A stretch of DNA of 36,388 nucleotides, from the NCBI GenBank assembly GCA_003990765.1, contig RBNJ01000222.1, positions 1-36,388 of the forward strand, written 5' to 3'. Positions 1 to 33,022 of the stretch are shown here, one piece after another. The notes beneath the pieces are model-generated. The model worked only from the letters and a program-made list of their open reading frames with translations, did not search any database and was not told where the DNA came from. Positions within the stretch are counted from its first letter, which is position 1. Each line of letters starts with the position of its first letter. Made by a program: the position numbers and the translations under genes. Source of the DNA: Jimgerdemannia flammicorona. Lineage: Eukaryota.

Positions 1-106
1 TCCCAGCGACCCCCCTCCCCCACCAGCCGACGCCCAACACCCAATCTATCCCCTATCTCTGCCCAAAAATCCCCCAAGACCTCACACTCCCCCAGCCAAT
101 GTTCCG
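1..106 (-). mobile_element. 5'-truncated L1/Tx1-like LINE fragment (ORF2 C-terminal zinc-finger region), running off the window start
   Basis: Minus strand reads PEHWLGECEVLGDFWAEIGDRLG, matching PEHWLGECKVLGEFWRCIMDRLG of the LINE at about 36265-36330. Same G-rich sense strand. Abuts LTR sequence at about 115. Confidence 0.8.
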
Positions 107-302
107 GTCAAGAGATTGTCTAACTGCTGAGTCAGTTCACAGTCATGTCATATAAGGCTAATCTAACTATACTATGACTGCTAAGCTATCTATAGATTTA
201 GATACTGTCTAGGTAGTCTTTGATGACATCACCATCAATGACATCATCTCTGATAAAGTAGTTGTCTAAGAAGAGTTATTTGTGGATTAATTCTATATAT
301 TC

Positions 303-348
<46 letters not shown>

Positions 349-351
<3 letters not shown>

Positions 352-1337
352 TAATAGTATATTGAGACTTCATTGCTGTCCTATAGAATAGTATCATCAG
401 TCTCATATGCTGGATAAGGTGTTAGTAGGTAAAGAAAGAGTGCATCATCTTCACTTTCATCAGATTCACTATTTGTATACCTCTTATAAGTTATAGCACT
501 ATGAGTTACTGGGTTGTAGTAAGCTAGTAGCTGTAGTTCATATTGTTCATACTCAGGTGGTGGGGTGGTTGGTTTGATCTTGAGGATTGTCTGAAGATAC
601 AGATTGTATTCTCTAGTTTCTTTATTATAGTTGAAGTAATTGGGGATAAATATGAGTTGGTATTCATACTAATGGTCATTGTCCTAATAAGTTTCATAGG
701 TGGTTATGAACTATTATAAGTTTATCAGCAAGGTTGGTGAAGTGATCAAGATTGGCAGAGATCCTTGGCTTGAGGTCATGTCAGCATCAGAGGGATCATT
801 ATCTTCTACTTCATCTTCATCAAATCAGATTATATTGTAGATATCCTTCGTAATATATCTGACTTAAGACATTTGTAAGATATAGTCATCAGGGTGCAGA
901 AAGATTCTGTCTGTAGTCTGAATATACTTAAGATACTTGTGGTTGAGTTCTTATATCATGTTATCTATTTGGCCATAAGATAGGATAGTAACCATTTCAG
1001 CAGTAGTAACTCAGAGGTAGGAAATAAAGATACTGTACTTATAGAAGAGTTCTCAATATTTGTGGACAATAAGTTTCTGGTGTTGAAACATCTGAGTAAT
1101 ATCTGTATCATAGTAGTATTTGACCATGTCTTTTAGGAGGTAGCTGATCTAGTAGTAGCTTGAGATTTATTCAATTCAGTGGACTTTGCTAAGCATATTC
1201 AGGGTGTTCTATCAGGCTTCCACAAAGTAGAGAGGTGCTAAGCTATAGATATTCATAAGGGGTAGAGAGAGTGTTGCTTGGTTGATAATGGTATTCCAAA
1301 TATCAGTACAGATATAGTTATAGATCTCAGTTGTCAT
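349..1337 (-). pseudogene. Degenerate ORF of about 330 codons inside the variant LTR; N-terminal half resembles Gypsy accessory ORF3
   Basis: One frame from ATG 1337 (MTTEIYNYICTDIWNT...); its stops revert to sense codons by single transitions. Contains YY*ISYLL...IVHKY*ELFYKYSIFISYL*VTT and acidic stretches (DEDEVEDND, SESDESEDD). The 3' end is uncertain. Confidence 0.6.
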
Positions 1338-1486
1338 GTTTATATATATTCAAGAGTTGGGGTTGTGTATTTGGTTTGTTTTGGTTCTTTATTTTGATAT
1401 GTCTCAGTACTTGGTATACATATATGTATTTAGTCCTGATTGGTAAGATCTCATTTGTATAAATCTTATATTCTATAACTTTATAT

Positions 1487-1562
1487 TGACTCAGCTTTAT
1501 ATACTGTGACTTTGGTTTGACTCAGCTTTGTATGCTGTGACTTTAGTTTGACTCAGCTTTAT
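1487..1562. repeat. 31-bp tandem repeat, about 2.4 copies
   Basis: TTGACTCAGCTTT(A/G)TAT(A/G)CTGTGACTTT(G/A)GT repeated. Confidence 0.8.
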
Positions 1563-2086
1563 GATCTTACAGGTGATTTCTAGATTTGTTCAGAGGTTGC
1601 ATGTGATTTCAGTAGCTTGTTTTGAGGGTAATGTGTGATTTTAGTAGCTTGGAGGTTGTATGCTTACAGATTAGATAAAAATAGTTAATTACTATAGTAG
1701 TCTATTAGAAAAAAAAAAAAAACTTTAAAAATATTATACTTTAATTTATCTGATATTATATAACTCTATTATTACTATTAAATACATATAATAATTTTAG
1801 TTTTTATAAAAGAAAGTAATTAAGTTTTAAAAAGAGAGACTTTTTTTACTTAAATTATTTAAAAAGAGCTAAGTTATAAATATATTCTTTTATGAAAAGT
1901 AATATATTAAATAGTTTTTACTTTATCTACTTAAATATATTAGGTTCAGAATAAGTCTAGTATTTAGCCAATACTATTTTTATTTACTTTTACTTAGTTT
2001 TAGAGAAACAGTAAGCTAGGAATTAACTAGCTCAGAGAGATTAATAAGAAGAGGGCTAGAGATAAAACTTTCTAGAAATTATATAG

Positions 2087-3592
2087 TATAAGAGGGTTAC
2101 TTTTTAGGGTAACCATTATGTAGTTCTGGAAGAGTTTTCTAGAAGTTCTGGATATTCTAGAAGACTGTTTTCTTAAGATCAAGATCAATTTCATATGGAG
2201 TACATCCTCTATGCTTATTGATTTTAAGATCAGATTGACATCTCAACTAAAGTTCTTTTTTGGACTAGTTCTGGATGTTCAGGATTTTCCATATTTCAAG
2301 AAGTTTAAGAAACTAAGACCAGCTTAGTTGAATCAACATATTGCTGCAGAAAATACCCAATTAGGAAATTTCGTGATGGGGTTAGGAGTGGGACTTAATG
2401 GGGAGCAGATTTACTTAAAAGTAGTTTGTGGGTTATTAAATAGGTTTATTAACTATTCATAATATTACTATACTAAGAGTAGTTGTATGAAGGGATATTG
2501 TGGAAAAGTATTCAGGAGTTGTATTCAAATTGTTCAGGTCTGTAAGTCTGAGATTCTGAGGTCTGGGAGAGGGGATATTTATACTAGTGAGGGGCTATCT
2601 GGACTATGCTAAATATGGATATAGCACTTAGTGCCTTGCTGAGTCAGAATACAGTTATATAGTACAAGTTTAATCTGATATATTAAGAGATCATCTGACT
2701 GCTGAGTTAGTTCACAGTCACATCATATAAGGCTAATCTAACTATACTATGACTGCTAAGCTATTTATAGATCTAGATACTGTCTAGTTAGTCTTTGATG
2801 ACATTACTATTGATGACATCATTGCTAGCAAAGTCTGAGCAGTTTTCTGACTTCTGATATCATCAGTTTCCAAGGTATCATCACTTCTATCTCTTGCAAG
2901 ATTGAGACTGTTCTTGGTTGTAGTGGTTGCACAAGGTTAACAGGTCTTGGTTCTCTTTTTTTTTGATCTGCTGGTGCATTTGCAAGGACTGGCCATCCTT
3001 GTCTAGGGCGAGGGCTCCCAATGTCACAGCTGGAGGTTCAAATCTCTCAGAAATGATATTTTCTGTAATCCAAGGCAATTTCTAGTAGTTATATCTGTCA
3101 CATGGATAGCTTGAGATTGGTTTTGATGATGTTGGCTTTCTTGAGTTCAGATGAAGCATCCATCACTCTCTAATAAAGGTGACACAGATAGAGCAAATAG
3201 AGTTGTTCAAATGCATTTTGCTTCTACTAAGTAATGAGGTCTTGTATAGTTGCAGAGTATCCTGGTCTTGAGTTGATAAGTACAGTTCATGAACCTTTTG
3301 ATAGATGAGATAGAGTTCTTCTTATCTTGAATTGAGTTTGGTACTTCTGGTTTTCTTTGTAATATATAGTACAGTATACCAAACTAGTTATAGTGGTTCA
3401 GAGTTGGTCTTATGGTTGTAGTACTTCTTCTAGTATTCTTGTGTCTTAGCAGTGGGTTCTCATGCTTGCTGGCATATTTTGTATAACCAGATGATCTCTT
3501 CAGTAACTTGTTTTGTAGTCTCACATATGGTTTCCAAATTAGTTCTTAAGGATGATATGTGATTTTAGTGGCTTGGAGGTTGTGCACTTATA
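2087..3592 (-). repeat. 3' LTR, about 1.5 kb
   Basis: Reverse complement of 29173-30675 over its full length. TGTAAG..CTTACA termini decayed to TATAAG..CTTATA. PPT AGAAGGGGAGAG immediately upstream on the minus strand (3594-3605). Confidence 0.9.
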
Positions 3593-4018
3593 ACTCTCCC
3601 CTTCTTAGCTTTTGACATTCTCATCAGAGCCTTCTAATTTGTTCTAGTATTGTTATACCATTTGGAAGGTCAAAAGTCTAGTGAAGTCTATTTTTCTCAG
3701 AAAGTGGCATACTCATAGTACAGTTGCCTAATATATTGGATTTATATGTTAAAGGGTCATGTGTTCAATGCTATATACTAGAAGTGATTCTGACATTATT
3801 CACTACTGGAGAATTTCCTCTAAGGAATCTTCTTAAATGTCTATATCTCATTTCCCACCAGTGGTATAGGGAGAATAGACTTACTTTCAGTTTTGTTATT
3901 TTTCCAGAGGGTTGGTATTCTTTGTCTTGACTTGCTAAGTTCTTGATTTTTTGCTCATAATAATTATAATATTCAGGAGGGTAATATATAGTGTGTACTG
4001 ATAGGTATCAGATAGATT

Positions 4019-4594
4019 TTAGTTGTTCGAGAAATCATATTCCTGAACTAAGTCAGTAGTATTCTGGAGATTGGTCTTGGGTTCCCATGTTGTATTGTAG
4101 ATCAGGTAACATTTCTATTTAACAAGATACTCAGGGTGGTTCTTGTTGCCATGTTTATTGAGAATTTGTTCAACTTCATATTCTTCTTGATCATTAATTA
4201 TGATAGGTGCAGGTGGTTCAGTGGTTTGGTTTAGGAATAGCTCATCATTGTTTTCATTGTATCACTTGAGACATTGGACATTAAAGACTGAGTGGACCCT
4301 AATGGTGTCAGGTAGTACTAATTTGTAGGAAGTAGAAGAGACTTATGTAATGACTTCGAATGGTTCAATGAACTTACTGTTCAGCTTTATAGATGGTCTG
4401 TACTTGAGGTTGTCAACTCAGTATCCTCAGATATCCAGTAGAACTTTTTCTTCAATGTCAAAGGTTTCTTCTCAGTAGTGTTGGTTAATATATTGTGACT
4501 GTTATTCCTGAGCTCATAATAAATTCTCAATTGCAATTTGGCTTAGATTATGTATTTGGAGTAAGAATTCTTCAACAGCTTCGACTGTAGAGGG
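4019..4594 (-). pseudogene. Integrase C-terminus (GPF motif) plus chromodomain
   Basis: KLNSKFIEPFEVI (decayed GPF motif), then EEYEVEQILNKHGNKNHPEYLVK*KCYLIYNTTWEPKTNL at 4019-4186, a canonical chromodomain pattern. Confidence 0.88.
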
Positions 4595-4986
4595 TAGTGT
4601 TCCCAACGAATTGAATTGAATCAAATTTGGCCCAAACTCGATTTGATTCGATTGAATCAAGGGTCCAATTTGATTTGAAGTTTGATTTGAACCTTAATTT
4701 TCAAAATGTAATAACTCAACGAAAACTCATCCAAATTTAACATATTTTAGCTTGTTAGATTCACCGTATTAATGTGAATTCTAACAAGCTAAAGTACGTT
4801 AGATTTGGATGAGTTTACGCTGAGTTATTGCATTTTGAAAATTAGGGTTTGAATCAGACCCTCAATTTGATTCAACTTTTGATTCAATTTGAATTGATTT
4901 GAATTGAAAAATCCCCAATTCGATTCGACTCATTTAACTCTCAATTCGATTCAATTCGAATTGATTCAACTTTTTTGGGAGCACTA
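4595..4986. mobile_element. Non-autonomous hAT-like MITE, copy 1
   Basis: TIR TAGTG(T/C)TCCCAA / TTGGGAGCACTA. Subterminal 5-mer arrays (ATTCG/ATTTG). Central long inverted repeat. Flanks do not form a TSD. Confidence 0.8.
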
Positions 4987-4998
4987 TTGAGTTAATAA

Positions 4999-5381
4999 TA
5001 GTGCTCCCAATAAATTGAATCGAATTGAATTTGGCCCAAACTTGATTCGATTCAATTGAATCAAGGGTCCAATTCAATTCAATTCAAATCAAATCAAAGG
5101 TCCAATTTGATTTGAAGTTCGATTTGAACCTTAATTTTCAAAATATAATAACTTGATGAAAACTCATCCAAATTTAACATATTTTAGCTTATTAGATTCA
5201 CCATATTAATGTGATTCTAACAAGCTAAAGTACATTAGATTTGGATGAGTTTACGCTGAATTATTGCATTTTGAAAATTAGGGTTCAAATTAGACCCTCA
5301 ATTTGATTCAACTTTTGATTTGATTCAAATTGATTTGAATTGAAAAATCCCCAATTTGATTCAACTCATTTGGGAGCACTA
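4999..5381. mobile_element. Non-autonomous hAT-like MITE, copy 2
   Basis: Perfect 12-bp TIR TAGTGCTCCCAA. 8-bp TSD GTTAATAA (4991-4998) / GTTGATAA (5382-5389), one transition apart. An 8-bp TSD and YAGTG terminus are typical of hAT. Confidence 0.85.
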
Positions 5382-5698
5382 GTTGATAAGTACAGTTCAT
5401 GAACCTTTTGATGGATGAGATAGGGTTCTTCTTGTCTCAAATTGAGTTTAGTACTTCTGGTTTCCTTTGTAATAGTACAGTACACCAAACTAGTTATAGC
5501 AGTTTAGAGTTGGTCTTATAGTTGTAGTACTTCTTCTAGTATTCTTGTATCTTAGCAGTGGGTTCTCATACTTGCTGATGTATTTTGTATAACCAGATGA
5601 TCTCTTCAGTAACTTATTTTGTAGTCTTACATGTGGTTTCCAAATTAGTTCTTAAGGATGACATATGATTTTGGTGGCTTGGAGGTTGTATGCTTACA
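5382..5698 (-). repeat. Remnant (first about 317 bp) of the chromovirus 5' LTR
   Basis: Near-identical to 3272-3592; intact TGTAAG terminus. Confidence 0.9.
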
Positions 5699-5703
5699 TA
5701 TAG

Positions 5704-8221: not shown

Positions 8222-8689
8222 TGTAATGGTACAGCCAAATTTGGAAGAAGGAAATAGGGAATAGATACTTGATCACACCCAGTCCCAAAGTAATATAGCC
8301 TTATAGTTAGCAGTCCTCGATTTCGATATTGTCTAAATTCTTAGACATTGTCTAAATTTTTAGACATTATCCAAATCGAATGTCCTGATTTAGTATAGCA
8401 TTTAGATATTGTCCAAATATTTTGACAAAGTCCAAATGACTCATTTATTACTTAGCCACCCTTGCATAGCTAGCAAACTTGTATAAATAACCCAGTATCT
8501 TGGAGTGAATAAACCTCAGATCGAAAGTATTAGAAAAAGAACAAGTATACCAATAAAAGGACCTTCGGGATTACTTCTTTAAAAACACATTTGGCCTCAA
8601 GGAACTACTGACTCTGGGAGTCAAGAAGACAAAAATTCAAGATAAAGAAATCTGATGTACTTACCCATCTTAGTGTCCACTACATTACA
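8222..8689 (+). repeat. 5' LTR (468 bp)
   Basis: TGTAATG...CATTACA termini; direct repeat of 14447-14913; contains TATAAATA and AATAAA. Confidence 0.97.
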
Positions 8690-8692
8690 ACT

Positions 8693-8709
8693 TGGTGCCC
8701 ATTGGCTGG
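8693..8709 (+). promoter_or_regulatory. Primer binding site TGGTGCCCATTGGCTGG
   Basis: Starts with TGG 3 nt after the LTR; decayed version at 23193 in the second copy. Cognate tRNA not determined. Confidence 0.75.
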
Positions 8710-8794
8710 TGATTCAAGATGAATCCCTCACTTTCAAGCTGAACAATGAACAACCGTAACAAGAACCCACACAACACAATCAGACAAAATAGAT

Positions 8795-11700
8795 ATGAGA
8801 CCACCTGTATTTCATGGATACACCTCTGATGAATCAATCATCACCTTCATCGACGATTTCAAGCAATATACTGCCATAAGGACCTTAAGTATAGCACAAC
8901 AAGTAGCCCTACTCTCTGTAAGCCTCAGAGGCCCAGCAAGAACTGCATTTACTATAGCCAATATTGTGGGAAATGACAATCCAGCAAGACTCCTAGCTTT
9001 CAAGGCCTGGCTCCAAGCAACCTATTATACAGATGAAATCAAACAAGCATTCAAGGATCAACTAAATACTATCTGCCAAGGAATGTCTGAAGACCCAAAC
9101 ACATTCTACACAAGAATCCGACATCAAATAGTCCTTGCTGACTACCCTGATGCAGTTCAAGACCAAGTGGCTGAGAATACCTTCATGAAAGGCATTCATC
9201 AAGAAATTGCTTTAGCTATCTGATCTACTCCAATGGTGCTGGACCTGGGCCAGAAGGTTACCTATGCCCAAAGATACTGGACTACCAGACACCCTCAAGG
9301 CCATACAATGGAAAGAATAACAGGAGTAAAAATTGAACAAGTACCAAGGGTCACCAATATAGTCCCAGCTATCATAGTCAACTGAAATACTCAACGATAA
9401 TCACAAGAACAGAGAAGGGTTGACCCAATGGAGGAATTGGCCAAACAGTTTGCAGAAATGACTGCACACCTCAGTGACATAGTCAAAGAGTTCAAGAAGA
9501 AGCCAGTATAGAAGTTTGCTGCTACAAATGCAAGATGATCAATAACATGCTACAACTGTGGAGAAGAAGACCACTATGCCTCCGAATGCATGACAGAAAC
9601 CAAGCGAAAAGCCAATCCAAGCAATGCAACCAGAAACCGTGAGCAGGCAAACACTATCACCTTCAAGGAGATTGGAGAATCTGAGGAAGAGAGGGAGGAA
9701 TGGGAAGCTTACCCTGCCACCTCAAGCAAGAAGGATGTCTGATCCAGTCCCTACAAAAGATCTCCAGGCAGACCCCCTAAGAAGGCCCAGACACAAACAA
9801 GATAACCAGAAACAGTCATCAAAAAAGAGAACCAGCAGAGCGAAGCTGATCAAGATATGGAGCTGGAACAAGATGCTGAACTTGAACAAGTGGTAGAAGA
9901 TATCATTAGAAACACCACCCCATCAAGTGAAGGGAGGAAGGAGCAGAAATTGCACAAGAGCAAGACCTTTAAATATGATATCTTCAAGGACCTCAAGGAC
10001 CAAAAAGTCAATGCAACCTTTGGCCAACTAGCAGAAATCCCAATCTTCAGACAACAAATAAGGACAGGAATCTCAGATATTGGCAAAGACCAAGGTTGGA
10101 AAATAATTGAAGCCAATAATGCACAAGAAGATTCAGATGAAGAGAGTGAAGATAATTGGAAAACATCAGCCTATGCTATCTGCCAGATCGAGGATCGAGT
10201 CTTCAAAGCCATTATTGATATGGGAGTAGGAGGATGTCTCATCACCAAGAAAGCAGTAGACTGCCTAGGCTGGGAGATAGAAGAAGCCACCAAACTGGTA
10301 TTTGTCACAGCTGATGGAACATGAGCAACACCCTTGGGAAAGATCTGAGATGTACCAATCAAGTTCAGAGAGGCCACTATCCCTGTGAATGTCATTATCA
10401 TCAATGCAACCAACTATGATATCCTCATCGGCAATCAATAGCTTCATAAAGCCAAGGCAATAATTGACCTCAGTGCACAGAAGATGCAGATCGTCTACTA
10501 GGGAAAGAAGATTAGAATTCCCATCAATGTCTACAAAGGAGTCCACCCCGAGATAGAGGAAGACCAAGAAGAAGAAGTCTACATAGTTACTATAAAGAAA
10601 GGAAAAGGCAAGCAATTGACAGAGGAAGAATGGTATATAAGAATCACAGATGGATATGCCCTACTAGGAAGGTGCCCCCATGGTGAAAGAATGTACTGTG
10701 CCCAGCACTTGGGTCACTGCTACTCTTGTATCATTGAGGTAAAGAAGATCACCAACAAGCCAAAGAAGAACCAGGAGGAACTAGAAGATGGACCACCAGA
10801 GTTATTGGATGACAGTGATGATGAGGATGAAGATATCATAGTCAAGATATGAAGGATTCACCCTGATGCAGTCATACCACAGTACAAGTCGGAGAATGCA
10901 GCTGGAATAGACCTATCTACTACTATATACACAATACTCGAACCACAGACTACTACCATTCTAGGAACAGGAATTGAAGTAACCATCCTACCAAACCATG
11001 TCGGAATCCTCAAGACAAGGAGTAGCCTGGCGAAAAGCAAAATATCTATAGAAGGAGGAGTCATCGATTTGGATTATACTGGAGAAATCCTTCTCCTTAC
11101 TAGAAACCACAACCCAACAATCCCATTTGAAGTAAGGAAGAAGGATCGGCTGGCACAAATGCTCATCCTATCTGTCCTTAATCCAAGAATCAAGGAGGTC
11201 ACAAACATCAGACAAACTCAGCAAGAGAGAGCTGGATTTAGCTCTACCGGAAGAGGAGTCCTCACAGCAACTAAGATCACCGAATTGAAGCACAAGAAGG
11301 AGGAAAGCCAAGACAAACACACCTACACAATCGGAAGAAACTTCCCCCTCAGGGTAGAATTGCAGAGCCTCTTGTATACATTCGAAGATATACTGGCCAC
11401 AGATTTCAAGGACATCAAGACCAAGAAACCCTTGTATTATCATGATGTCAATACTGGAGATACAAAGCCAATCTATCAGAAGGCCTGCCCCATTCCACCA
11501 GCATACAGAGAATGGCTCAAGACAGAGATCAAGGAAATGGAGGAATCTGGTATCATTAAAGAAGCCAGCAGCCCTTGGTCCTCCCCTATTGTCCTTGTAC
11601 CAAAGAAAGGAAGCCAACCAGGAGAATTTACACCAAGACTCTGCACAGACTATAGAAGACTCAATGAGGTCACAGAGAAGGACAGACAACCATTGCTAAA

Positions 11701-12757
11701 CATTGGCGATATCCTTATCATGCTGGGGAATGAATCATGATTCTACACTACCCTGGATCTATTCTCAGAATTCTACCAAATCAGCCTTACACATGAAGCC
11801 AGCAAAAGATCAGCCTTCATCACCCCCGATGGAACCTATGTCTATCTCTACATGCCCTTTGGAATGTGCAATGTACCAGCAAGCTTCTAGCAAATGATGA
11901 ACAGTATCTTCAGAGATATTATGGAAAAATGGATGATGGTATATATAGATGATATGATCATCTTCAGCTGAACAGCCAAGGAGCACTTGGAACATATTGA
12001 GGAAATCCTCAGAAGGCTTCACAAACATGGCCTCTACATCAAGCCCAAGAAATGCAAGTTCGGAGAAGAAGAGATTGCATACCTCAGACACATTATCAAT
12101 CATGAAGGAACACACACAGACCCCACAAAGATCAAAGCAGTAGCAGCATACCCAGTACCTACCAGCATCATGGAAGCCCAAGCCTTTATGGGACTTACAT
12201 CCTACTACAGAAGATTTATTAGAAGATTCTCCCACATCGCCAGCCCTATCTATGATCTGTTTAGAAAAGAGGTTAAGTTCCAGTGGACTCAGCAGCAGCA
12301 ACTAGCCTTTGATGAGCTCAAGACCAGATTGACCCAGGCCCTAATCTTGAGAAGACCTGACTGGACTCAGGAGTTTATTCTGCAAACAGATGCCAGAGCA
12401 ATGAGACTTGGAGCTGTCCTTGCACAAAAGAAAAATGATGCCAAATACATGGTAGCCTATCTCAGCCGAGGTACTCATGGGGCAGAGCAGTCCTATGAGT
12501 CTTATAAGCTGGAATGCCTTGCAGTCATCTGGGCTGTAGAAAAGTTCCACTACTACCTGGCTGGAAGACACTTCACCATCTAGACAGACCACTCAGCACT
12601 CACCTAGTTGCTCACTACCAGTGAGCCCAAAGGAATCTATGCCCAATGGATTGTGAAGCTACAAGCATATGATGCCACGATCACCCACCGCCCTGGAAGA
12701 ACCAATGCCAATGCTGATGCCCTCTCATGGATACCCCAAAGGACCCCACCACCATAA
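8795..12757 (+). pseudogene. gag-pol: Gag-PR-dUTPase-RT-RNaseH polyprotein, single frame with internal stops
   Basis: ORF pieces at 8795, 9857, 10616, 11069 and 11987 share one frame. Zinc knuckle CYNCGEEDHYASEC (9548-9589). Protease IIDMG (10217; decayed DTG). RT SPWSSPIVLVPKK, DYRRLN, YIDD (11942-11953). RNase H ILQTDA, LECLAV, NADALS. Ends at TAA 12755-12757. Confidence 0.93.
10838..11251 (+). pseudogene. dut: Trimeric-type dUTPase domain between protease and RT
   Basis: All five motifs in order: AGIDL, RSSLA, GVIDLDYTGEI, DRLAQ, RAGFSSTG. Confidence 0.93.
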
Positions 12758-12764
12758 AATCACC

Positions 12765-13958
12765 ATGAATAAGGAGCTGTACTATGGAATCATCAGCTAC
12801 CTGGGGCAGTGAAAGATGCCCCCGCATCTGGAAGAATGGACAAAAACAATTATTAATCAGACATGGAAACAATTTGAAACTAATGGAGAAATACTCAAGA
12901 AAGAACAACAATTAGTCATCCCCGAGCACCAGAAGAATCAAGTAATGAAAGAAGTACATAAACAGGGTCACATAGAAGGAACAAATACATATGACAAAGC
13001 AAGAAGAACCATGTGGTGGCCCAGAATGGAAGAAGATATCAGACAATTTGTCAGAACCTGTGACAAATGCCAGAAATAGAAACAAGACCGATGGGATCAA
13101 GCCTCTGGATCAGCAGACATCAAACCAATACTATTTGCCCACATTGCAATAGATGTAATTGGCCCTCTACCCCTGACATTGACTGGCAACCAATATGTCA
13201 TTGTAATAGTGGATCTATTTACAAAATGGGTAGAGGCTGGACCCCTCAAGGAAGCCAATGCACAGTCAATTGCTGATTTTTTTCATAGAGAAATCATCTG
13301 CTGATTCAAGACCCCAAAGCAAGTTACTACAGACAGAGGAACAGAATTCGTCAACCAGTTCCATGAGGTTCTTTACAAGAAGTACAAGATTCAATACATC
13401 AAGACCACAGTCTATCACCCACAAGGAAACAGACAAGCAGAAAGAACCAACAAGACCCTCAAGAACATCATTGCCAAGATCTGTGATGAATATGGAAACT
13501 GGGACCACTATCTACCAATAGCATTATCTACTCTGCAGGATATATGATTATAAAGCACCCATTTTACACCACGAGAAATGCTATTTGGTGAAGAAGGTTC
13601 CAGTGGAAGTTTGTCAGCAGGTAATAATGCAATCTGGAAGCATGTGGATACAGAGATATGGAGATTGCATCAAATTAGGAAAAAGGCAGAGGATTACATA
13701 ATCAAGGCACAGGCACTATAATGGAACAATGTAAAAAAAACCCACAAGCCCCTAGAGATTATCAAGATAGGAGATGAAGTCCTAGTATATTGGAATATGG
13801 TAGAAGCTTCTTGGTCACGAAAACTGGAGCCCAAGTGGGAAGGACCTTATCTGGTACAAGATATAAAAGGGACTACTTTCTGGCTATGAAAGCCCTCAGG
13901 CACAATAATCCCCACTACCATTCATCGAAACTGACTCAAGAAGTACCATGGCCAATAA
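12765..13958 (+). pseudogene. int: Integrase encoded as its own ORF (HHCC, DDE, GPY; no chromodomain)
   Basis: ATG 7 nt after the pol stop, in a different frame. HKQGH..CDKC, IDVIGPL, TDRGTEF, AERTN, KLEPKWEGPY. Ends at TAA 13956-13958. Confidence 0.9.
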
Positions 13959-14409
13959 CCAAAGCACTGTGATAGCACTCAAGATCACTAGTGCTACCCA
14001 AAGAGCCATTGAAAGACAATGGCACACCACCGAGCCTCCGACCATAGAGGCATACTATGAGGATATTCAGAGTATTGTACAGACTCATCTCTCTTAGATC
14101 TTGCACTTTAGAGCCTATCAATATCAGGCAGAATTCCAAGAGTACTTCAAGCTTGGACAGGTGCTCAATCAGGATCCAGCAAAGACCAAAGAGGACTGGA
14201 TTGCCAAGTGTCAACTCTCCCACTCACAGATCACTATTGCCAAAAGAATCTACAAGTTATTCCGAGAAGATGAACTAGCAATAGACTACCTGAGAGGGGT
14301 AACCCCCACCGACTTCGAGAAAGTGAGAAGACATCATTGGGAGACAGTCATGCAGCAAATTGCACAATATAAGACCATACAGATGGTTGAAGCCTGGGAG
14401 TTTGAATAG
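13948..14409 (+). pseudogene. Accessory ORF3, 153 aa, unknown function (one internal stop)
   Basis: MANNQSTVIALKITS...EYFKLGQVL...IAKRIYKLF...EAWEFE*. Overlaps the integrase end by 11 nt. Equal-length homolog at 28527-28988. Confidence 0.8.
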
Positions 14410-14446
14410 ATGCCTCAGAGATGAGACCATCTATTCAGGAGGAAGT

Positions 14447-14913
14447 TGTGACGGTATAGCCAAATTTGGAAGAAGGAAATAGGGAATAGATACTTGATCG
14501 TACCCAGTTCCAAAGTAGTATAGCCTTATAGTTAGCAGTCCTCGATTTTGACATTGTCTAAATTCTTAGACATTGTCTAAATTTTTAGACATTATCCAAA
14601 TCGAACATCCTGATTTAATATAGCATTTAGACATTGTCCAAATATTTTGACAAGTCCAAATGACTCATTTATTACTTAGCCACCCTCGCATAGCTAGCAA
14701 ACTTGTATAAATAACCCAGTATCTTGGTGTGAATAAACCTCAGATCGAAAGTGTTAGAAAAAGAACAAGTATACTAATAAAAGGACCTTCAGGATTACCT
14801 CTTTAAAAACACATTTGGCCTTAAGGAACTACTGACTCTGGGAGTCAAGGAGACAAGAATTCAAGATAAAGAAATCCAATGTACTTGCCCATCTTAGCGT
14901 CTGCTATGTTACA
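14447..14913 (+). repeat. 3' LTR (467 bp), preceded by PPT AGGAGGAAG
   Basis: TGTGACG...TGTTACA termini; direct repeat of 8222-8689. Confidence 0.97.
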
Positions 14914-17489: not shown

Positions 17490-18430
17490 TGATCTTTTAA
17501 GAAGATCTAACTAAACTTAAGAATTCATCCTTCAGACTGATATATATAAGTTTAGTTAGATTAGATAGAGTCTTTATATAAAAAAAAACATATCTCTATC
17601 AAGGAACCTGTAGAGAAGAAAGAAGTATAAATTCTATAAGTTAGAGTATCTTATAGTCATTTGGACTATAGAAAATTTTACTACTACCTTGCAGAAAGAT
17701 ACTTCACTATCCTGATAGACTATTTGGCCCTTACTTAGTTAATGACTATAACTAAACTCAAAAGAATATTTATCATATAATTATAAAGCTATATATAAGC
17801 TTATAATATAATTATTATATACTATTTAAAAAGAACTAATACTAATACTAATCCTCTTTTATAGATATCTTAAAGAATCTACAACTAGTAAAAAAAAAAA
17901 AAATATGAATAAGAAACTTTACTATAGAATTATCACCTATCTGAGATAGCAAAAGATGTTCTAATATCTGGAAGAATAAATATAAATAATTATTTATAAA
18001 ACTTAATTTTTTTTTAAAACTAATAGAGAAATACTAAAGAAAGAAAAGCTACTAGTTATATCTGAATATAAAAAGGAATAAGAAATGAAATTATATATAA
18101 ACTTAATTATTTAGAAGGAATAAATATCTATAATAAAGTAAAAACAATAATATAGTAGTTAGAAATAGAGGAAGATATTAGATAATTTATCAAAATCTGT
18201 GATAAATATTAGAAATAGAAGTAAGATTAGTAAAATCAGACTCCAGGATCAGCAGACATAGACCTAGTACTATTTGTCTGTATTATAATAAATATAATTA
18301 GTTTCTTATCTATAATATTAACTGATAATTAATATATATATCATCATTATCATAGATCTTTTTACAAAATAAATAAAAGCAGAACTTCTCAAAAAGTCAA
18401 TGCATAGTTAATTACTGATTTCTTTTACAG
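17490..18430 (+). pseudogene. Decayed fragment (RNase H to integrase N-terminal half) of a third dUTPase-Gypsy relative
   Basis: EFILQTD (17521), YYLAERYFTI, ATG AAT AAG AAA CTT TAC (17905). Collinear with about 12340-13290. Confidence 0.85.
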
Positions 18431-18928
18431 CAGAGAAGGAAGAAGGCCCAGCGAGAGCCAAGGGAGTGAACCCAGAGCCAGTGTCAAAGTGAACGGAAGA
18501 CATATAGAAAGATATATATAAGGGGGATGAATAAAGAATGTAACTGAAAATGCATAAGCCATTTATTGCCATGTAAAAATGCAGTCCTTATATATAAAAT
18601 ATAATATCCCAAAAGGGAGAATGTACCACAACTCAGAGTGAACTGAATTAGGAACCACATGACCACTGGAGATAGGCGGAGATAAAGGGAGAGCCAATCC
18701 CAGTTATAGGATAAAAATCACAAACAAACATAAATAAAACAAATCTAAATCGAGATTAAAAAACACCCATCTATCCTGGAAGGGTGAGCATGAGTGATGA
18801 GTGAGGCCGAAATGGAGCGAGCCACAGTGAGCCTGAGCGAAGTGAGGGGCTGAAGGCAGTGGAGGGGAGTGGAGTAAGGCCAAGACCTCAGAGTAAGCAC
18901 GAGACCCTGGAGGGAGCAAGGATGTTTT

Positions 18929-20790
18929 TTAATCCTCTCTAGCAGAGCCGGAGATACCAGAAGGTGATGAAAATGCAAAATGAGAGCAATGAATTAAAGA
19001 AGAAACAGAAGGAAGACATGAATAAGCAATCAGAGAGCATTGAGAAAGAGATGAAAGTCTATGGCATGAAAGAGAAGAGCACAGGATGGAATCAGGGCAT
19101 TGAGCAACCCAGCAAGCACAATCAAATAGTATAACAAGAATTGAGGGTGGGAAAGAAGAGGGGGTATGGAGAGGATAAGGGAAGAGGGAGAGAAGGGAGG
19201 GAGAGTAAAGAGGAGAAAGGAGGGAAGAGCGAACAACAGACCATTCAATAGAAGCAAGCAGATCACAAATGATAGAAATTGGGTAGGCATGATGATGATT
19301 GGACAAGAAGTCAGGGAACTGTTGGGAATATGGAAAATGAGAATAAACAACAGTTCAAAAAGGAGAAAGAGAAATAGAAAGGTCCAAGAAGGGAATACTA
19401 ATCATACTGCACACCCAAGTAATAGAATGATGGGGAGGGTAGATACCCGAAAACATACCAGGGATATCAATATCAGCAATAGCAAAGACAATAAAGTCAT
19501 CGATATATCGGTGAAAGAAGATATCCCTGGCCTGGAACATGATGAAAAGAGATGAAGAAAGATCACATATTGCATGAAGTTTATGGGCCAGGCCAACGAG
19601 ATTGGTAAGGGTGGAGGCACAATTCATACCCATGGCAATACTAGAAGTCTGGTGAAAAGAGCCAAGGACTGACTCAAAATAATTAGAGCTGCAGATGAGG
19701 AGCATAAGCTCAACAATGGAAGTCAACAAGATAGGAGAATTCAAAGGAAAAACAATAGAACCCAAGAAGTGAAGGCAATTATCAATCTCATCAAAACGAA
19801 TAGTAGTATAGAAGGAGGAAAAATCACCAGAGGCCAAATGGGAAAAACAGTGAACAGGCACAATGGTAGAGCAGAGAAGGGTGAGCTCCTGAGTATCATG
19901 AAGAATGGTATACTCAGGCCTAAGATGGTGTTGTAGAAGAGCCATCCAGGAGAGGAAGAAGTGGGATAACTACTTTGAAATCTCAGTAGTAGGGGAACTA
20001 TAAGCAGCCATAATGGGATGCCAAGCCAAAGTAGGCTTGTGAACTTTAGAAAGAGCATAGAAAACCAGAAGAGAAATATCTGGGAAGAACAAAGAGTCCT
20101 GGAAGAAGTTAAAAATAGGATTCATGAATGGAGAATCCAAAAGTGATCTGGTATAAGCCAGAGAAACCTGAAGAAGAGTAAGAATCTCATCCAATCTAAG
20201 AGTGCTAGGCTCATAAGCCACAGCTCAAAAGAGGGCAGAAAGGCCATCAAGGTAGAGCGACTTAGGAATAAGTGCAAAACCTTGATTCTTATCAATGACT
20301 ATGAGCAAATGCATGGGCAATTGCTTGACCAATTTAAGCATGGTATATATAGCATAGTCTGAAACCAAGTAGGAGCAAGCGTGTCCAGAAATGGACAGTG
20401 AGCAAGCCATGTTGAGGAATATATAGTATGAAGAGACATTGGGAGAGGGGACCAAATCACTAGGAACAAAATAGCAAGAGGACATCTCACTACAATCTTG
20501 ATATGACAAAAACATGTGAGATGAGTCAGATCAGTGAAAGAAAATTGTGAGGGAGTCGTAGGAAAAACAAAGCAAGGACCCAAGGATAAGGCAAAGACTT
20601 GAAAGGGAGAAAGGGGGCAGTCAGCCGAAGAGAAAGGAGGAGACAAAAGTGTTTCAAGAGAAGAGTAAACCTGAAAGTTCAGGATAAGCAACTGGGAAAG
20701 GTGAAGGGGGGACAACATGAGGAACCACTCAGGGCACACCAGAAGCGACAATGGAATCTGAGAAGAGACAGGGATACTGGGGGAGAATCA
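18929..20790 (-). pseudogene. PLE reverse transcriptase with stops and at least one frameshift
   Basis: LSLGPCFVFP, IDKNQG (PLE DKN motif), FYALSKVHK, WHPIMAAYSSPT, GDFSSFYT, QTSSIAMG, RYIDD, IPFLDL. ORF pieces starting 20515, 20221, 19945 and 19306 share one frame. Start position approximate. Confidence 0.88.
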
Positions 20791-20804
20791 TGCTAGGGGG
20801 AAGT

Positions 20805-22034
20805 TTAAGAGTAGGAGACCTTCCTCTTCTCTCTGACTTTTTTTGAAGGCGGTGAACCCAATGAACAGAAGTATACCCCATCAGAGTACCAGATCTTGCG
20901 GCCACAGGCTTTCGTACAGCCCTTATATTTAGGGGCACAGGTGGAGGAGGCGGAGGAGAAACCAGTAGAGGAGGCCAAAGGTGAGCAAGCAGCCAAAGGA
21001 GCAGCAGCATGAGGAACACCATCATGAGGACAGACAGACTTGGCCGGGTGCCAGTAGGCACAGTGGAGGCAACCAGAGTAGACAGCACAAGGCCAGGCCC
21101 TGACAGGGTGAGAACCAAGTTGGCGGCCATGCTTGGGGGCAGGGGAAATGGAGGAGAAAGCCTTGGTGAGGGAGGGAGACCAAGAAGAGGCCGACAAAGC
21201 CTGGTTGGGCTTGGCAGGGGTCTTGGCAGGGGTCTTGGAGGGGGCCTTGGCAGCAGTAGTGGCAAAGGAATAAACCTCAGCACAAGTAGCAGCACAAGCT
21301 TTGGCACAAATGGCCTCAGAGACCAAAACCTCGGGGAAGGTAGACAGGGGAGCAGTGGTGGCAGCATGAGCAGCAGTAGCAGTATATGACATCTCCTACT
21401 CATGAAGGCAAGCAATAAAAGAGGTGCTGGCAAGGAGAAAATGATGCACAGTATCAATGTTGGCAGTGACAGAAGAAACGTCTTGGATAGTAAAGCCACA
21501 GAAGGGGGCAGCATCTGAAAGGTAAGAGGAGGCAAAGGCCATGAAGACAGTACAGATATGGTAGAAGGAGGCAGAAGCAGTAGCAGCAGAAGTAGCAGCA
21601 GCATCAGCAGTGGTAAGCTTGGTGGTGGCAGTGGCAGTATGAATCTCTTCAGAGAGAGCTTGGCAGTAGACCTTGGGGAGAATGGAGTAGCAGACAGCAG
21701 ATGGAGCAATGATGTTGACATCACAGCAGAGACGAGCCTCCTTAGCAGAGAGGGCAAGAACTGACTGGAACTGAGAGAGGAGTAGATGACCAGAGAGACA
21801 AAGGTCCAGGGGGAGGGAAAGGATGGCAGATGAGATATAGGTCTTGAATGAGATAGTGGTGGAGGTGAAGGCAGGGGGAGGAGGAGGAGAAAGAGCCTCA
21901 TCTATGAGCTCATCAATGAGGACAGAGGCTCTGAGGGCAGATGGTACAGCAGAGGAGGAAGAAGGCCCAGCAGGAGCCAAGGGAGCGAACCCAGAGCCAG
22001 TGTCAAAGTGAACAGAAGACATGTGGAAAGGCAT
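20805..22034 (-). pseudogene. PLE ORF1, about 409 aa, Ala/Ser/Pro-rich with Cys/His clusters (one internal stop)
   Basis: ORFs 21396-22034 and 20805-21392 are in one frame. Starts within the pLTR. Motifs CLHCAYWHPAKSVCPH and CTKACGRKIWYSDGVYFC; basic C-terminus. Confidence 0.6.
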
Positions 22035-22775
22035 GTATAAGGAGGATGAATAAAGAATATAACCAAAAATGCATCAGCCATTTATTGCCATGTAAAAACG
22101 CAGTCCTTATATACAAAATACGACATCTCAAAAGAGAGGACATGCCACAACTTGGGGCGAACCGAATTAGGAACCACATGACTACTGGAGATAGGCAGAG
22201 ATAAAGGAGGAGCCAATCTCAGTTGCAGGATAAAAATCACAAATAAACACAAACAAAACAAATCCAAATTGAGATTAAAAAACATCCTTGCCCCCTCTGG
22301 AGTCTCACACTTGCTCTGGGGTCTCGGCCTTACTCTGCTCCCCTCTGCTGTCTTCAGCCCCTTGCTTTGCTTAGACTCACTGCAGCTTGCTCTGTTTCGG
22401 CCTCATCCCTCACTCGCGCTCACCCCTCTGGGGTCTGTGGATGTTTTTTAATCTTGATTTGGATTTGTTTTGTTTGTATTTGTTTGTGATTTTTATCCTA
22501 CAACTGGGATTGGCTCCCCCTTTATCTCCACCTATCTCCAGCAGTCATGTGGTTCCTAATTCAGTTTGCCCCAAGTTATAGTGCATCCTCTCTTTTGGGA
22601 TGTTGTATTTTGTATATAAGGACTGCATTTTTATGTGGCAATAAATGGCTGATGCATTTTCAGTTACATTTTTTATTCATCCCCCTTATATATACCTTTC
22701 CACATATCTTCTGTTTGCTTTGATACTGGCTCTGGGTTCGCTCCCTTGGCTCCTGCTGGGTCTTCTTCCTCTTCT

Positions 22776-25092
22776 TACAAATAGCAGTTATTTCACAAAT
22801 GTTAAAGTTTTGATAAATATTAATATTTTTACAAATATTGAGATTTTATAGATATTAAATCTTAATAATTATTAAAGATTTAACAGATATCAAGAATTAA
22901 TACTTGTAAAAAATGACTTACAGGAAATATAGTTATAACTTAGTCTCATATTTAGTAGCTAAATTAGTATACAAATTTGTATAAATATCTCCAGTATCTA
23001 GAGTGAATAAACCTCAGATCAAAATAGTTTAAAGTAAAGAGAAAGTAAGAAAACTAGTAAGTCTGTAGGCAGATATACTTTAAACTTACCCACCCCTATA
23101 TTCTGAGGACTCTGCAGAGTCAAAGAAGATCAAGTTTTCAAGAGATAGAATTCAACATACTTATACAGTTATATGTCTGTTATATTACAACTTAGTATCT
23201 ATTAGCTGGTAATTTAAGTCAAATTCCTCACTTTTAAGCTAAACAACAAACAACTACTACTATCTGAATAACTATACAAATCAAACCAAAATATCTAGAC
23301 AAGATAGATATGAGACTACTAGTATTCTACAGATATACTTTAGATAAATCAATCATCATCTTCATTAATGATTTTAAGCAATATACTACTATAAGAACTC
23401 TGACAGTAAAGCAGCAAGTAGCCCTCATACCTTTCAGTCTCTAAGGTCTAGCAAGAGCAGTATTCATAGCTGTAACCTATAAAGAAAATAATAACAATGT
23501 TGTACTAATAGTATAGAAGACCAGGCTTAGAGCTACCTACTATACAGATGAGATCAAGTAAGCTCTGAAGAATCAGCTCAATATAATATATCAAGGAATG
23601 AGTGAGAATTCAAACACATTCTATACTAGAATTTAATATTAGATAATCCTTATAGATTATGATGCTGCAATCTGAGATCAAGTAGCTGAGGCAACCTTTA
23701 TAAAGAGAGTCTACTTAGAAATAGCTATAGCCATCTAGCATCACTAGTAGTTCTGGACCTGACATAGAAGATCATCTATGCTTAGTGATACTGAATAGCC
23801 AGACATCTACAAGACTATATAATAAAAAGAGTCACTAGAGTTAGAATTGAAGTCTCTAAGATAACTAGTATAATCTCTACCATAGTGATCAATTGAAATA
23901 CATCTCAACTAAGAGCTATTGAGTAGTAAAGAAACAGTGACCCTATAGAGAAACTAGCTAAGAAGTTCACTAAAATGACTACTTATGTAAGAGATATGGT
24001 AAAAGAAATCAGAGGAAGAGATTACTATCCAGTTCAGAAGTTTGCTATTATCTTAGACAAAAAGAGAAGTATCTGCTATACTTGTGAAGAAGAAGGCCAC
24101 TACTTATATGAATATATAAGTAAAATCAAGTATAAGATATACTACTTGAAATAGAGAACAGACCAATACCATTATCTTTGAAGAAATTAGAGAATCTAAT
24201 AAAGAAGAATGAGAGGCCTACTCTATATAGATCACTAAGAAGGATGTTCATAAAGAACTCTACAAGAGATCATCAGGGAGACCCAATAAGAACTTAGTAA
24301 AAAAATAAATAGAAATTATCACAGAAAACCAAGCTAAAGAAATAAATCTAAATATGGAGTTTGAGAAAGCAGTTTAAGATATTATCTGAGAAACTACTCT
24401 AGTTCCAGTTAGTGAAGGAGAAAAGAAAAGGAAGCTTTGCAAAATCAAGACTTTTAAGTATGATATCTTCAAGGATCTTAGTCAATAAAAAGTCAATGCA
24501 ATCTTTGGCCAGCTGGTGGAAATCTTCACATTTAGATAGTAAATAAGATATAGACTTGCTGAGATAACTAATATCAACAATATTTAAGAAAACTCAGAAG
24601 ATGAAAGTGAAGATAATTACAAGACCTCTGCCTATATAATTTATCAAATTGAAGATAGAATCTTCAAGACCATCATTAATACTAGAGCAAGAGGATGCCT
24701 TCTCAGTAAGAAGGCAGCAGACTATCTAAGTTGAGAGGTTAAAGAAGCAACTAAGTTAGTATTTGTCACAGCAGATAGTATAAGAGCCACACCTCTAGAA
24801 AAGATCCAAGATATTTCCATCAAGTTTAAGAAGTAACCATCCTAGGTGATGTCATTATAATCAATACAACCAACTATGACATCCTTATTAGTAACTAATA
24901 ACTTCATAAAGCTAGTGTAATAATCAATCTGAATGCCCAAAAGATGCAGATTATCTACTAAAGATAGAAGATATAGATTTCCATCATATCAACAAAAAAG
25001 TACTCTCTGAAATAAAGAAAGAAGAAAGTGAATAAGAAGAAGCCTATATTATATGGGATAGATGGGTGTAATAAAGGACGAGTTTAAGTGAC

Positions 25093-25153
<61 letters not shown>

Positions 25154-28100
25154 AGCCTATATAGTGACCACTCAGAAAAAGAAGAAGAAAGTTGGATGGA
25201 TCAGTGAAGAGAACTGGTGCAAGAGGATTATTGAAGGATATATATCATAAGGAGTCTGCTCTTATAGAATTAAGATATATTATATGAAGTATGTCAATGA
25301 TTACTATCAGTATACTAGCAGAATCAAGAAGATCTATTATAAAAGAAAACAGAAGACTCTTGAGAAATAGACAAGAGAAGAGAAGGAGGAGGAAGAGAAT
25401 GATGAACCATCAGTCCTTCTGGAAGACAGTAATGATGAAGAGAAGATCAAGATCAAGATTCAGAAAATCTACTCTGATATAGTCCTATCAGAATACAAGT
25501 TAGAGAATATAGCTAGAATAGATATTACTACAGTAGAAGAAACTATACTTGAGCCCTAGACAACTATTCTATTTATAACTGATCTGGAGATAACTATTCT
25601 AAAAGACTATATTAGAATCATTAAGATAAGAAGCAGCCTGACCAAGAGTGAGATTACTATTGAAGGAGAAGTCATCAATTTGAATTACATATATCAGAGA
25701 AATACTACTCATTGCTAGAAACTACAACTCTATGATTTCATTCTAATCAAAAGGAAGAACTGACTAGTACAGATGTTAATCTTCTTAGTTCTTCAGCCAA
25801 AGTTCATAAAAGTTAAGAAGTTAGAGAAAATAGAGAGAAAAAGGAAGAAATTCAGATCTATAAGAAGAGGAGTATTCATCAGTACTAAGCTCATCAAACT
25901 AGATCATAAGAAAGAGGAAACTACAAATAAGCATAGCTATATTATTAAAAATGAATTCTCACTTAAGAAGAAATTCAAGAAGATACTTTATAAATTCAAG
26001 GATATTCTAGCTATAGATTTCAAGAACATTAAAGAAAAGACCCCACATTACTATCATGATATAGATATAGGGGACACTGAACCAATCTACTAAAAAGCAA
26101 GACCAATTCTACTAGCCTTCTGCAAATAGCTTAGAGAAGAAATCAAGCAGATGGAAGATGTCAATATTATCAAAGAAAATAGCAGTCCTTAGACTTTACT
26201 AGTTATACTAGCTCTGAAGAAAGAAAGCAAACTAGGAGAATTTGCTCCAAGGCTCTATACTGATTATAGGAAGCTCAATCTAGCTATCAAGAAGGACTAT
26301 TAATTACTACTCCTTATCAGTGATATCCTTATAACTCTGAGAGATAAAGTATAGTATTACAGTATTTTAGATTTATATTTAGAATTCTATCAAATCAGCC
26401 TCACAGAAGTAGCAAGTGATAAGTCAGCCTTTATCACTTCAGATAGAACTTATGTCTATCTATAAATGTCATTTAGAATGTATAATATATCAATAAGCTT
26501 CTAGTGAATGATGAACAAAATCTTCTGCTATGATATGGAAAGATGGGTGGTGGTTTATATAGATGATTTTATTATCTACAGTAAAATAGCTAAAGAATAT
26601 CTATAGTATATCTAGCAGATGATGGAGAAGCTAAGGAAGTATAGCCTATATATCAAGTCCAAGAAGTGTAAGTTTGTAGAAATCAAGATCTCTTACCTTA
26701 GTCATATTATTAACTAAGATAGAACACATACAGACACTCTCAAGATTCAAGCAGTAGCAGTATATCTAAAGTCCACCACTGTCACTAAAGCCCAAGTCTT
26801 TATGAGACTCACCTTATACTACTGCAGATTTATCAAAGAATTCTCCAATATTACAGATCTAATCTATGAATTCAATAAGAAGAATATCAAGTTCTAATAG
26901 ACTGACAGATAATAAAAAGTATTCAATGAACTCAAGATCAGATTGACCCAAGCACCTATCTTCAGAAGACCTGATTGGACTCAAGAATTCATTCTGTAGA
27001 CAGATACAAGTATATAAAAACTAGGAGTAGTTCTGGTCCAGAAGAAAGACAAAGTAGAGTATATCATTAGCTGAGAAATCTGAGGAGTCAAAAAAGAATA
27101 TAAATTCCATAAGTTAAAATGTTTTGCAGTTATCTGAGCTATAGAAAAGTTTCACTACTACTTCACTGAAATTTGCTTCACTATTCAGACAGACTATTCA
27201 GTTCTTACCTAACTACTGACTACTAGGCAAACCAAAGAAATCTATACCAGATAGATTATAAAGTTATAGGCCTATGATATAACCATTGTGCACTACTCTG
27301 GAAGAACTAATACTAATACAGATGCTCTCTTACAGATACTCTAAAGAACTCTCAACCTATAAATCAACAATGAATAAGGAGCTTTATTACAGAATTATCA
27401 CTTATCTGGGATAGCAAAAGATGCCCCAATATCTGAAAGAATGGATACAAATAATTATTAACAAAATATGAAAATAATTCAAAACTAATAGAAAATATTA
27501 AAGAAAGGAAAACTATTAGTCATATCTAAGTATAAGAAGAAGCAAGTAATGAAATCAGTATATGAACTTAGCTATCTAGAAGAAATAAATACTTATAAAA
27601 AAGCAAGAAGAACAATGTAGTAGCCAGGAATAAAGGAAGATATCAGATGATTTGTCAAGACCTATGATAAATATCAAAAATAGAAATAATATCAACAAAA
27701 TCAGACTCTAGAATTAGTATAAATAGAATCAGTATCTTTTGCCTATATAGCAATATAATTAGTCCTCTATCCTTGACTTTGACTGGCAACTGATACATCA
27801 TTATTATTGTAGACCTTTTTATAAAATAAATAGAGACAGAATCTCTCAAAGAAGCCAATATACAGTTAATTGCTAATTTATTCTACAAAGAAATCATCTG
27901 CTGATTCAAGACCCTATTATAGGTAACTATAGACAGAGGAATAGAATTTGTAAACCAGTTCATTAAGATTCTCTATAAGAAGTACAAGATTCAGCATATT
28001 CTATTATCTTTAAGAAAATGGATAAGCAGAAAGAATCAATAAGATCTTTAAGAATATTATTACCAAGATTTACAATAACTATGAAAACTGAGACCACTAT

Positions 28101-30675: not shown

Positions 30676-31062
30676 ACTTGATAGCAGTGGTTTACAATCC
30701 AATTCCACTTCAAGATACTTCCTTACTCTACTACTAACCCTTCTAAGAATTCCTATAAGTTGGTATAAAGCCCAACCTCTGAACTAGAATTTATCCTGAA
30801 CCATCTGACAATCTGGAGTGAATTGAACCTGATGTATAAGAACAATTTGACCTCTATATCTGTAACAAGTGGGACAAACTTCATTTGAAGAAAGAAATAC
30901 TTCAGTTAAATCAGTAAATAAGCAAAACCCTATTTACCAAACTCCTTGCACTATACCCAGCAAGTCAGGATGAAGAAGGTCTTATAGAAGTCAACTTTTC
31001 ACCAGTAATATTCGGGTGACACAAGACTCAGACAACACTTTTTACAACATTTTTGGTGTCCA

Positions 31063-32991: not shown

Positions 32992-33022
32992 GCTGAGGTC
33001 TCTTCTACAATATCTATTCAAT

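Follow-up and report, generated by a model that had tools for sequence, protein, structure and literature searches.

Organisation of the element

The window, that is, the whole 36,388-nt stretch of DNA analysed here, comes from contig RBNJ01000222.1 of Jimgerdemannia flammicorona, the source assembly of which (GCA_003990765.1; 231 Mb) is repeat-rich and codes for several full-length chitin synthases of family PF03142, as expected of a fungal host. It contains one complete LTR element at 8222-14913, plus two more decayed copies. All features of the complete element (copy 1) lie on the forward strand. The 5' LTR (8222..8689) has TG...CA ends and is directly preceded by the 4-bp target-site duplication GTAG, which also follows the 3' LTR (14447..14913). 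The two LTRs are ~94% identical, with transitions making up 29 of 30 substitutions. A PBS-like site at 8693..8710 (TGGTGCCC...) has the same sequence in genomic copies L168 and L171, and a polypurine tract (14437..14446) stands directly before the 3' LTR. Copy 1 thus carries the Ty3/Gypsy hallmarks of direct TG...CA LTRs, PBS, PPT and TSD, together with the domain order PR-RT-RH-IN and an RVT_1-type RT.

Between the LTRs are three successive overlapping ORFs. ORF1 (8789..12772, the start being approximate) encodes Gag with a CCHC knuckle, protease, dUTPase, RT and RNase H in a single frame ending at the true stop, TAA at 12770-72; in copy 1 it is interrupted by decay stops. ORF2 (12765..13958; 397 codons, eight internal decay stops) is a stand-alone integrase in the +1 frame, identified by Pfam scan and homologs, whose domains are in order a YPYY-like N-terminus, H2C2, the rve core and a GPY/F-type end. 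ORF3 (13948..14409) encodes 153 aa of no known family, predicted from a structure model to be all-helical. A Pfam scan of frames translated with X at stops placed CCHC, PR, dUTPase, RT and RH in the first frame and H2C2 and rve in the next, without a match in ORF3. No chromodomain was found in that scan and the integrase ORF ends just after the GPY/F-type region, so the element is not chromovirus-like. In genomic copies L170 and L171, Gag through RNase H likewise occupy one frame, followed by the integrase and then ORF3, each step being +1. The stretch between protease and dUTPase at 10550-10760 is Cys/His-rich, a possible zinc-binding module with no Pfam match there.

The other two copies are heavily decayed. 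The coding region of copy 2 extends over ~23300-28985 and includes an ORF3 remnant, while copy 3 is an RNase H-integrase fragment at ~17490-18430. The first 145 integrase codons of the three window copies contain 2, 19 and 15 stops, CpG is nearly gone, and all three copies are dead.

Several other repeats share the window. Copy 3 is interrupted by another element with an RT, encoded on the minus strand (18430-22780; weak RVT_1 match) and bounded by a 300-500-nt repeat that is present three times in both orientations. A GC-rich LINE-like element with an ORF1-like frame and pieces of endonuclease and RT lies at 31009-36388 (+). A non-coding repeat family occurs in direct and inverted orientation at 100-5700 and 29165-30673; it includes two inverted 781-nt units that lie 27 kb from each other and, at 4650-5370, some short palindromic units.

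The RNase H-integrase junction

An earlier note on this DNA had described a conserved stop, 7-nt spacer and ATG between RNase H and integrase. The letters it quoted are correct (TAA at 12755-57, 7 nt and ATG at 12765 in copy 1; TAA 27360 and ATG 27370 in copy 2; TAA 17889, an A-run and ATG 17905 in copy 3), as is the placing of the integrase in a different frame, which is +1 in all three. The conservation of the arrangement, however, did not withstand comparison across the genome. Among copy-1-like loci, taken as the best 30 of 40 scored matches from 2,785 candidates in the same genome, the pol-frame codon at 12755..12757 is CAA in 27, CGA in two and TAA in one, the sole TAA being that of the window copy itself. 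It is TAA in 3/28 scorable least-decayed copies and in 6/15 copy-2-like copies with standard spacing. The TAA at 12755-57 is a C-to-T decay stop in a former CAA codon, and not the stop of the family.

The family-wide stop lies five codons (15 nt) further on at 12770-72, where all 30 copy-1-like loci have either TAA (17) or TAG (13). Within 10952-12800 no other pol-frame codon is a stop throughout the 30 copies, although nine are stops in 9-15 of them. Because 12755 is a stop in one copy of 30 and 12770-72 in every one, the true junction is an ATG-AA-TAR overlap, and since the stop before the '7-nt spacer' is decay, the spacer itself is coding sequence. Across this junction the pol frame reads CAT GAA TAA, the stop beginning 2 nt after the integrase ATG ends. 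The sequence ATGAATAA is found here in all three window copies, at 12765..12772 in copy 1 (with A at -3), 27370..27377 in copy 2 and 17905..17912 in copy 3, in which the A-run before the ATG is expanded. The distance from RNase H to integrase is constant, placing the integrase in the +1 frame in 30/30 copy-1-like loci. Its ATG is intact in 26 of them and ATA in the other four. The integrase codon that overlies the pol stop varies between Lys and Arg, whilst the TAA/TAG stop itself is kept.

The overlap extends beyond the copy-1-like loci. A least-decayed set of 30 loci, out of 100 scored, was obtained by searching with the integrase of an intact relative; ATGAATAA is present in +1 in all 28 that have RNase H, the remaining two having none in the DNA examined. 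None of these 28 has the continuous RNase H-integrase frame that, according to the earlier note, would count against an ancestral split. In a copy-2-like set of 20 loci, 17 of them scorable, the +1 overlap with the stop at ATG+5 was seen in 15. The exceptions are L152, where a 1-nt deletion brings the integrase into frame but two stops lie just upstream, and L164, which has a 4-nt insertion. Combined, 73/75 scored genomic copies, least decayed included, have the +1 overlap with the stop at ATG+5, and a purine occupies position -3 of the integrase ATG in 76/76. The three-ORF layout, the ATG-AA-TAR overlap and its conservation are direct observations, and the earlier note's view of an element with three ORFs is borne out.

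Split integrases in related elements

A near-length protein search with the integrase returned 92 proteins. In 49/49 aligned full-length homologs a Met falls in one column, and the next residue is Asn (36), Asp (11) or Glu (2). This agreement owes something to gene callers, which favour Met as the first residue of a protein. Look-alikes of ~400 aa in the Atlas come mostly from Mucoromycota and Rotifera clusters. A search for longer proteins found 601, and among the 120 of these listed none exceeds 39% identity to the L031 integrase. The top listed match, P0254, was the only fused candidate within the split group, and was rejected as its gene model lacks the RNase H end and integrase residues 1-36.

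Metagenome and viral-collection DNA gives context to these proteins. RNase H lies upstream of the integrase in 43 of the 83 loci examined, L112 being excluded from the counts as a duplicate of L106. Of these informative relatives, 24 have a continuous frame, 13 show a clean split in which the integrase N-terminus has an ATG, and six are broken. The broken loci (L060, L068, L091, L100, L107 and L110) were not counted as split, being ordinary broken elements that have no integrase-start Met or contain other stops. In the split relative L031 an intact 1577-aa Gag-PR-dUTPase-RT-RH ORF ends in an AUGA overlap; L033 has a UGA-2 nt-AUG junction. In the closest relatives with DNA context, start and stop are still adjacent and the phase has changed. 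Among the 13 split relatives, AUGA occurs in two and the others have gaps of 2, 9, 12, 39, 62, 62, 89, 92, 156, 278 and 521 nt. The frame offset is -1 in nine and 0 in four, as against +1 in the window family, and a purine is found at -3 in 12/13.

It might be supposed that the split is an artefact of decay or assembly, spread non-autonomously, since the window copies are all dead and full of decay stops. The same phase, however, recurs in 73/75 copies from three groups, relatives with stop-free ORFs are split too, and the closest fused relative among those listed, at just 39% identity to the L031 integrase, has a gene model that skips the junction. An artefact can be given virtually no credence, and is ruled out by L031, L033 and L035. 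The suggestion that the split is ancestral to the family is upheld both by the genomic copies and by intact relatives such as L031.

Other arrangements were encountered among these loci. The 521-nt gap between RNase H stop and integrase ATG in L046 (903-1399) is occupied by two short ORFs of 83 and 85 aa, the second of which overlaps the integrase start. In L039 (3491-4438) RNase H is extended by 316 aa that match no Pfam family. The Met-starting integrases of L063, L078 and L080 share a short motif upstream, distinct from the stem motif described below; these loci have no RNase H upstream in the DNA examined and may be DNA transposons or long-gap elements. In L056, L062 and L113 the integrase is located upstream of RT, an order that we take to be Gmr1-like.

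ORF3 and the second junction

The start of ORF3 overlaps the integrase stop in much the same manner. In copy 1 junction 2 (ATGGCCAATAA; 13948..13958) places the ORF3 ATG at 13948 and the integrase stop at 13956-58, the shift again being +1. Among copy-1-like loci the ATG is retained in 25/30 and the TAA in 28/30, and the overlap is present in 25/30 least-decayed copies. A third ORF starts at the same register in L031. In 42/71 homologous integrases the pair of residues following the last conserved Tyr can hide a +1 ATG, against a background of 4.6%, the count being inflated because the sequences are related; where His is the first of the pair, the second is G, E, D, A or V in 35/41. No such third ORF was found in the DNA examined of the split relatives L037, L040, L045, L046, L048, L051 and L054.

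ORF3 has seven close homologs, and a profile from a hand-picked alignment matched 238 proteins; the window ORF3 family and the wider family are linked by a weak HHalign match (E 2e-4, probability 46%). It belongs to no Pfam family and has no convincing PDB sequence match, and look-alikes in the Atlas are unnamed or weak. The structure model is all-helical (pLDDT 91). Foldseek searches of PDB and viral libraries with this model gave no match at E<=0.001. The best VIA Z was 4.1, with KorB/Spo0J/VirB HTH rows at 3.1-3.8, so that an HTH role for the modelled protein is a lead only.

How the integrase may be expressed

In textbook LTR elements the integrase reaches the particle as part of Gag-Pol. 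In the window family it very probably has a start AUG of its own and is not released from Pol by cleavage. The variety of frames and gaps, together with a Met that never varies and its start context, favours initiation at this AUG by a wide margin over frameshifting or readthrough. A +1 frameshift programmed close to the end of pol, giving a Gag-Pol-IN fusion cleaved by protease as in ordinary elements, would solve the packaging of the integrase, and the integrase frame is indeed open for ~35 codons upstream of its ATG. The offsets of -1 (9/13) and 0 (4/13) in intact relatives, together with +1 here and with stop-containing gaps as long as 521 nt, nevertheless argue against one programmed frameshift or readthrough. 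Neither the invariant integrase Met with its purine at -3 nor the 40 nt preceding the ATG, which differ between subfamilies, fit a frameshift site, and such a route is very improbable. Of the routes offered in the earlier note, recoding accordingly loses ground, whereas reinitiation gains from the overlapping start and stop.

Coupled reinitiation is favoured among those options by the overlap at junction 1. Within the group to which the window family belongs, start and stop lie within a few bases of one another despite a change of phase, twice per element, which is the signature of coupled termination-reinitiation in victoriviruses, hypoviruses and SART1. Judged from the sequence, there is about an even chance that this is the route to the integrase and that it is repeated at the integrase/ORF3 junction. 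Ribosomes on the genomic RNA would finish translating pol at its stop codon and resume at the integrase AUG that overlaps it, and a second stop and restart would follow at the integrase/ORF3 overlap. Integrase output would then be below that of Gag-Pol, and the protein would be made on the very RNA that is packaged. It might enter the particle by binding genomic RNA or Gag, or meet the cDNA afterwards. The AUG-nn-stop spacing of the window junction is that of the rabbit calicivirus junction. Precedents for termination-reinitiation are given, in the available part of PMC5972666, as victoriviruses, the hypovirus CHV1, caliciviruses, influenza B and the non-LTR element SART1.

Counting against reinitiation, none of the cis-elements sought at the junction turned up. 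No stable fold was detected on either side (z 0.83 to -1.56), and none of 12 junction stretches folded with a z below -1.7. UGGGA, motif 1 of TURBS, is absent from the 120 nt upstream in 76/76 genomic copies and occurs within 120 nt in 2/13 split relatives. Rfam gave no matches in 11 loci, and third-position divergence between two subfamilies revealed no clear protected window just upstream of the junction. Motif 1 is missing from the fungal virus cases as well, as far as the accessible text of PMC5972666 goes.

A second route would provide the integrase (and ORF3) with a subgenomic mRNA of its own, through an internal promoter or splicing, the overlap being mere compaction. The good start context at the integrase ATG is compatible with this, and there are precedents in the spliced Pol of foamy virus (PMC7828637) and a spliced ORF3 (PMC5408684). 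Gaps of 39-521 nt are present in 8/13 intact split relatives, three of them with 2-8 ATGs in the gap. Such gaps in distant relatives fit a separate mRNA better than reinitiation, and the mechanism may therefore differ across the clade. In the window family, on the other hand, scanning ribosomes on such an mRNA would in many copies first meet in-frame ATGs just upstream of the integrase ATG, and in its closest relatives the start and the stop stay only a few bases apart although their phases differ. Splicing in particular is disfavoured by the AGs common to three genomic groups (-106, -99 and -65), which lie in RNase H coding sequence and none of which is a CAG or TAG acceptor in the window copy. 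A separate mRNA is the main rival to reinitiation, though the less likely of the two.

Thirdly, internal initiation of an IRES-like kind could occur on genomic RNA independently of upstream termination. A motif with a covarying 6-bp stem is situated just upstream of the integrase ATG in the distant relatives L039 (4465-4503), L042 (1131-1169), L043 (177-218) and L066 (494-544), L039 and L042 being near-copies; it has no Rfam match and is a candidate internal-entry or promoter element. It is, however, absent from the other 160/164 loci, including all copies of the window family, and with the window junction showing no unusual folding, internal entry there seems improbable.

Relationships of the integrase

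The trees unite the window copy with L031, L033 and the Met-starting homologs in one group (SH-aLRT 99-100) that has no fused member. In one integrase tree all clean split loci are on a single branch (95), within which the position of one long fused branch is unresolved. When more fused rows were included, the split loci fell in a weaker group that also takes in fused elements of plants and of fungal type; next to them in that tree, within the same weakly supported wider group, are GIN1 and a Ginger1-like protein. RT trees comprised only unnamed gypsy-type relatives, and their deep branches are unresolved. One RT-RH tree has 10/11 split rows on one side of a weak branch, and in a second the split label needs three changes. 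A single split clade is not rejected by the AU test (p-AU 0.745), nor is it thereby shown.

Bao et al. (PMC2836005), in the portion available, report that in Ginger1 and in a number of Gypsy integrases the zinc finger is preceded by a YPYY motif. A segment at the front of the window integrase, upstream of H2C2, matches that description by eye. The Gypsy integrases of this type are characterised by such a motif, ~40 aa long and upstream of H2C2, together with a GPY/F motif. The integrase is split at the front of this YPYY-like segment, and GIN1 and an Ulp1-bearing Ginger1-like protein begin at nearly the same position. The layout is also relevant to the question of the relationship between Ginger1 transposases and Gypsy integrases. 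It is conceivable, if improbable, that a free, self-starting YPYY integrase would supply the intermediate form so far missing between Gypsy elements and the DNA transposons of the Ginger1 type. Derivation of Ginger1 from the split group is not shown by the trees, in which Ginger1 does not nest inside that group.

Comparison with known elements

A literature search found no description of a separate integrase gene in such elements; Repbase, GyDB, subscription journals and supplements could hold one. Fungal and rotifer elements are described with the integrase inside Pol in the available parts of PMC2864245, PMC3248453 and PMC5408684, and PMC13468544, as far as its available text goes, concerns an RNase H ORF and not the integrase. 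On its sequence the family would be classed as Ty3/Gypsy with a YPYY-type integrase, in a layout seemingly undescribed in the literature searched. Tentatively, and with a little less than even confidence, it may represent a widespread three-gene LTR lineage not described before, probably of early-diverging fungi, in which the integrase has been freed, two serial stop-restarts also yield the helical ORF3 and the cDNA is reached without a Gag tether.

A lineage without integrase in Gag-Pol must set the dosage and delivery of the enzyme in another way. As a compact unit present twice in series, the junction lends itself to tests of eukaryotic reinitiation following an ORF of 1,300 codons. Integrases of 400 aa that stand alone in data sets from fungi and soil may have been filed wrongly, either as DNA transposases or as Pol genes that are broken.

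The element shares LTRs, PBS, PPT and short TSD with Ty3/Gypsy elements (Metaviridae), among them the dUTPase-bearing PosPlaTy3-5, Tuber and Phanerochaete elements, and also the order Gag-PR-(dUTPase)-RT-RH-IN and an H2C2 and DDE integrase, as set out in the accessible part of PMC2864245. It differs in having Gag in frame with Pol, no chromodomain, an added 153-aa ORF3 of no known family and the integrase outside Pol; location within the Pol polyprotein is usual in Ty3/Gypsy but not phylogenetically defining. A similar segment before the zinc finger is reported for the YPYY-motif integrases of Athila/Tat, Cer1, Gypsy-1-I_RO and DGLT-A (PMC2836005, in part). In the fused YPYY elements L061, P0294, P0298, P0301 and P0321 the motif lies inside Pol without a Met, whereas in the window family a YPYY-like segment begins a Met-started ORF. 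Ginger1 elements are DNA transposons with TIRs, a single transposase ORF and no RT; the window element has LTRs and RT and so is not Ginger1.

In the termination-reinitiation systems covered by the available text of PMC5972666, as at the window junctions, a long ORF ends in a stop codon that adjoins or overlaps the next start; no LTR retrotransposon is named among the examples there. Neither a TURBS motif nor a pseudoknot was found at the window junction, where reinitiation is a proposed route. Foamy viruses (Spumaretrovirinae), in the part of PMC7828637 available, express enzyme apart from Gag and package it through genomic RNA. There the whole of Pol, integrase included, comes from a spliced mRNA, whereas in the window family the integrase alone is separate and Gag-PR-RT-RH remain fused.
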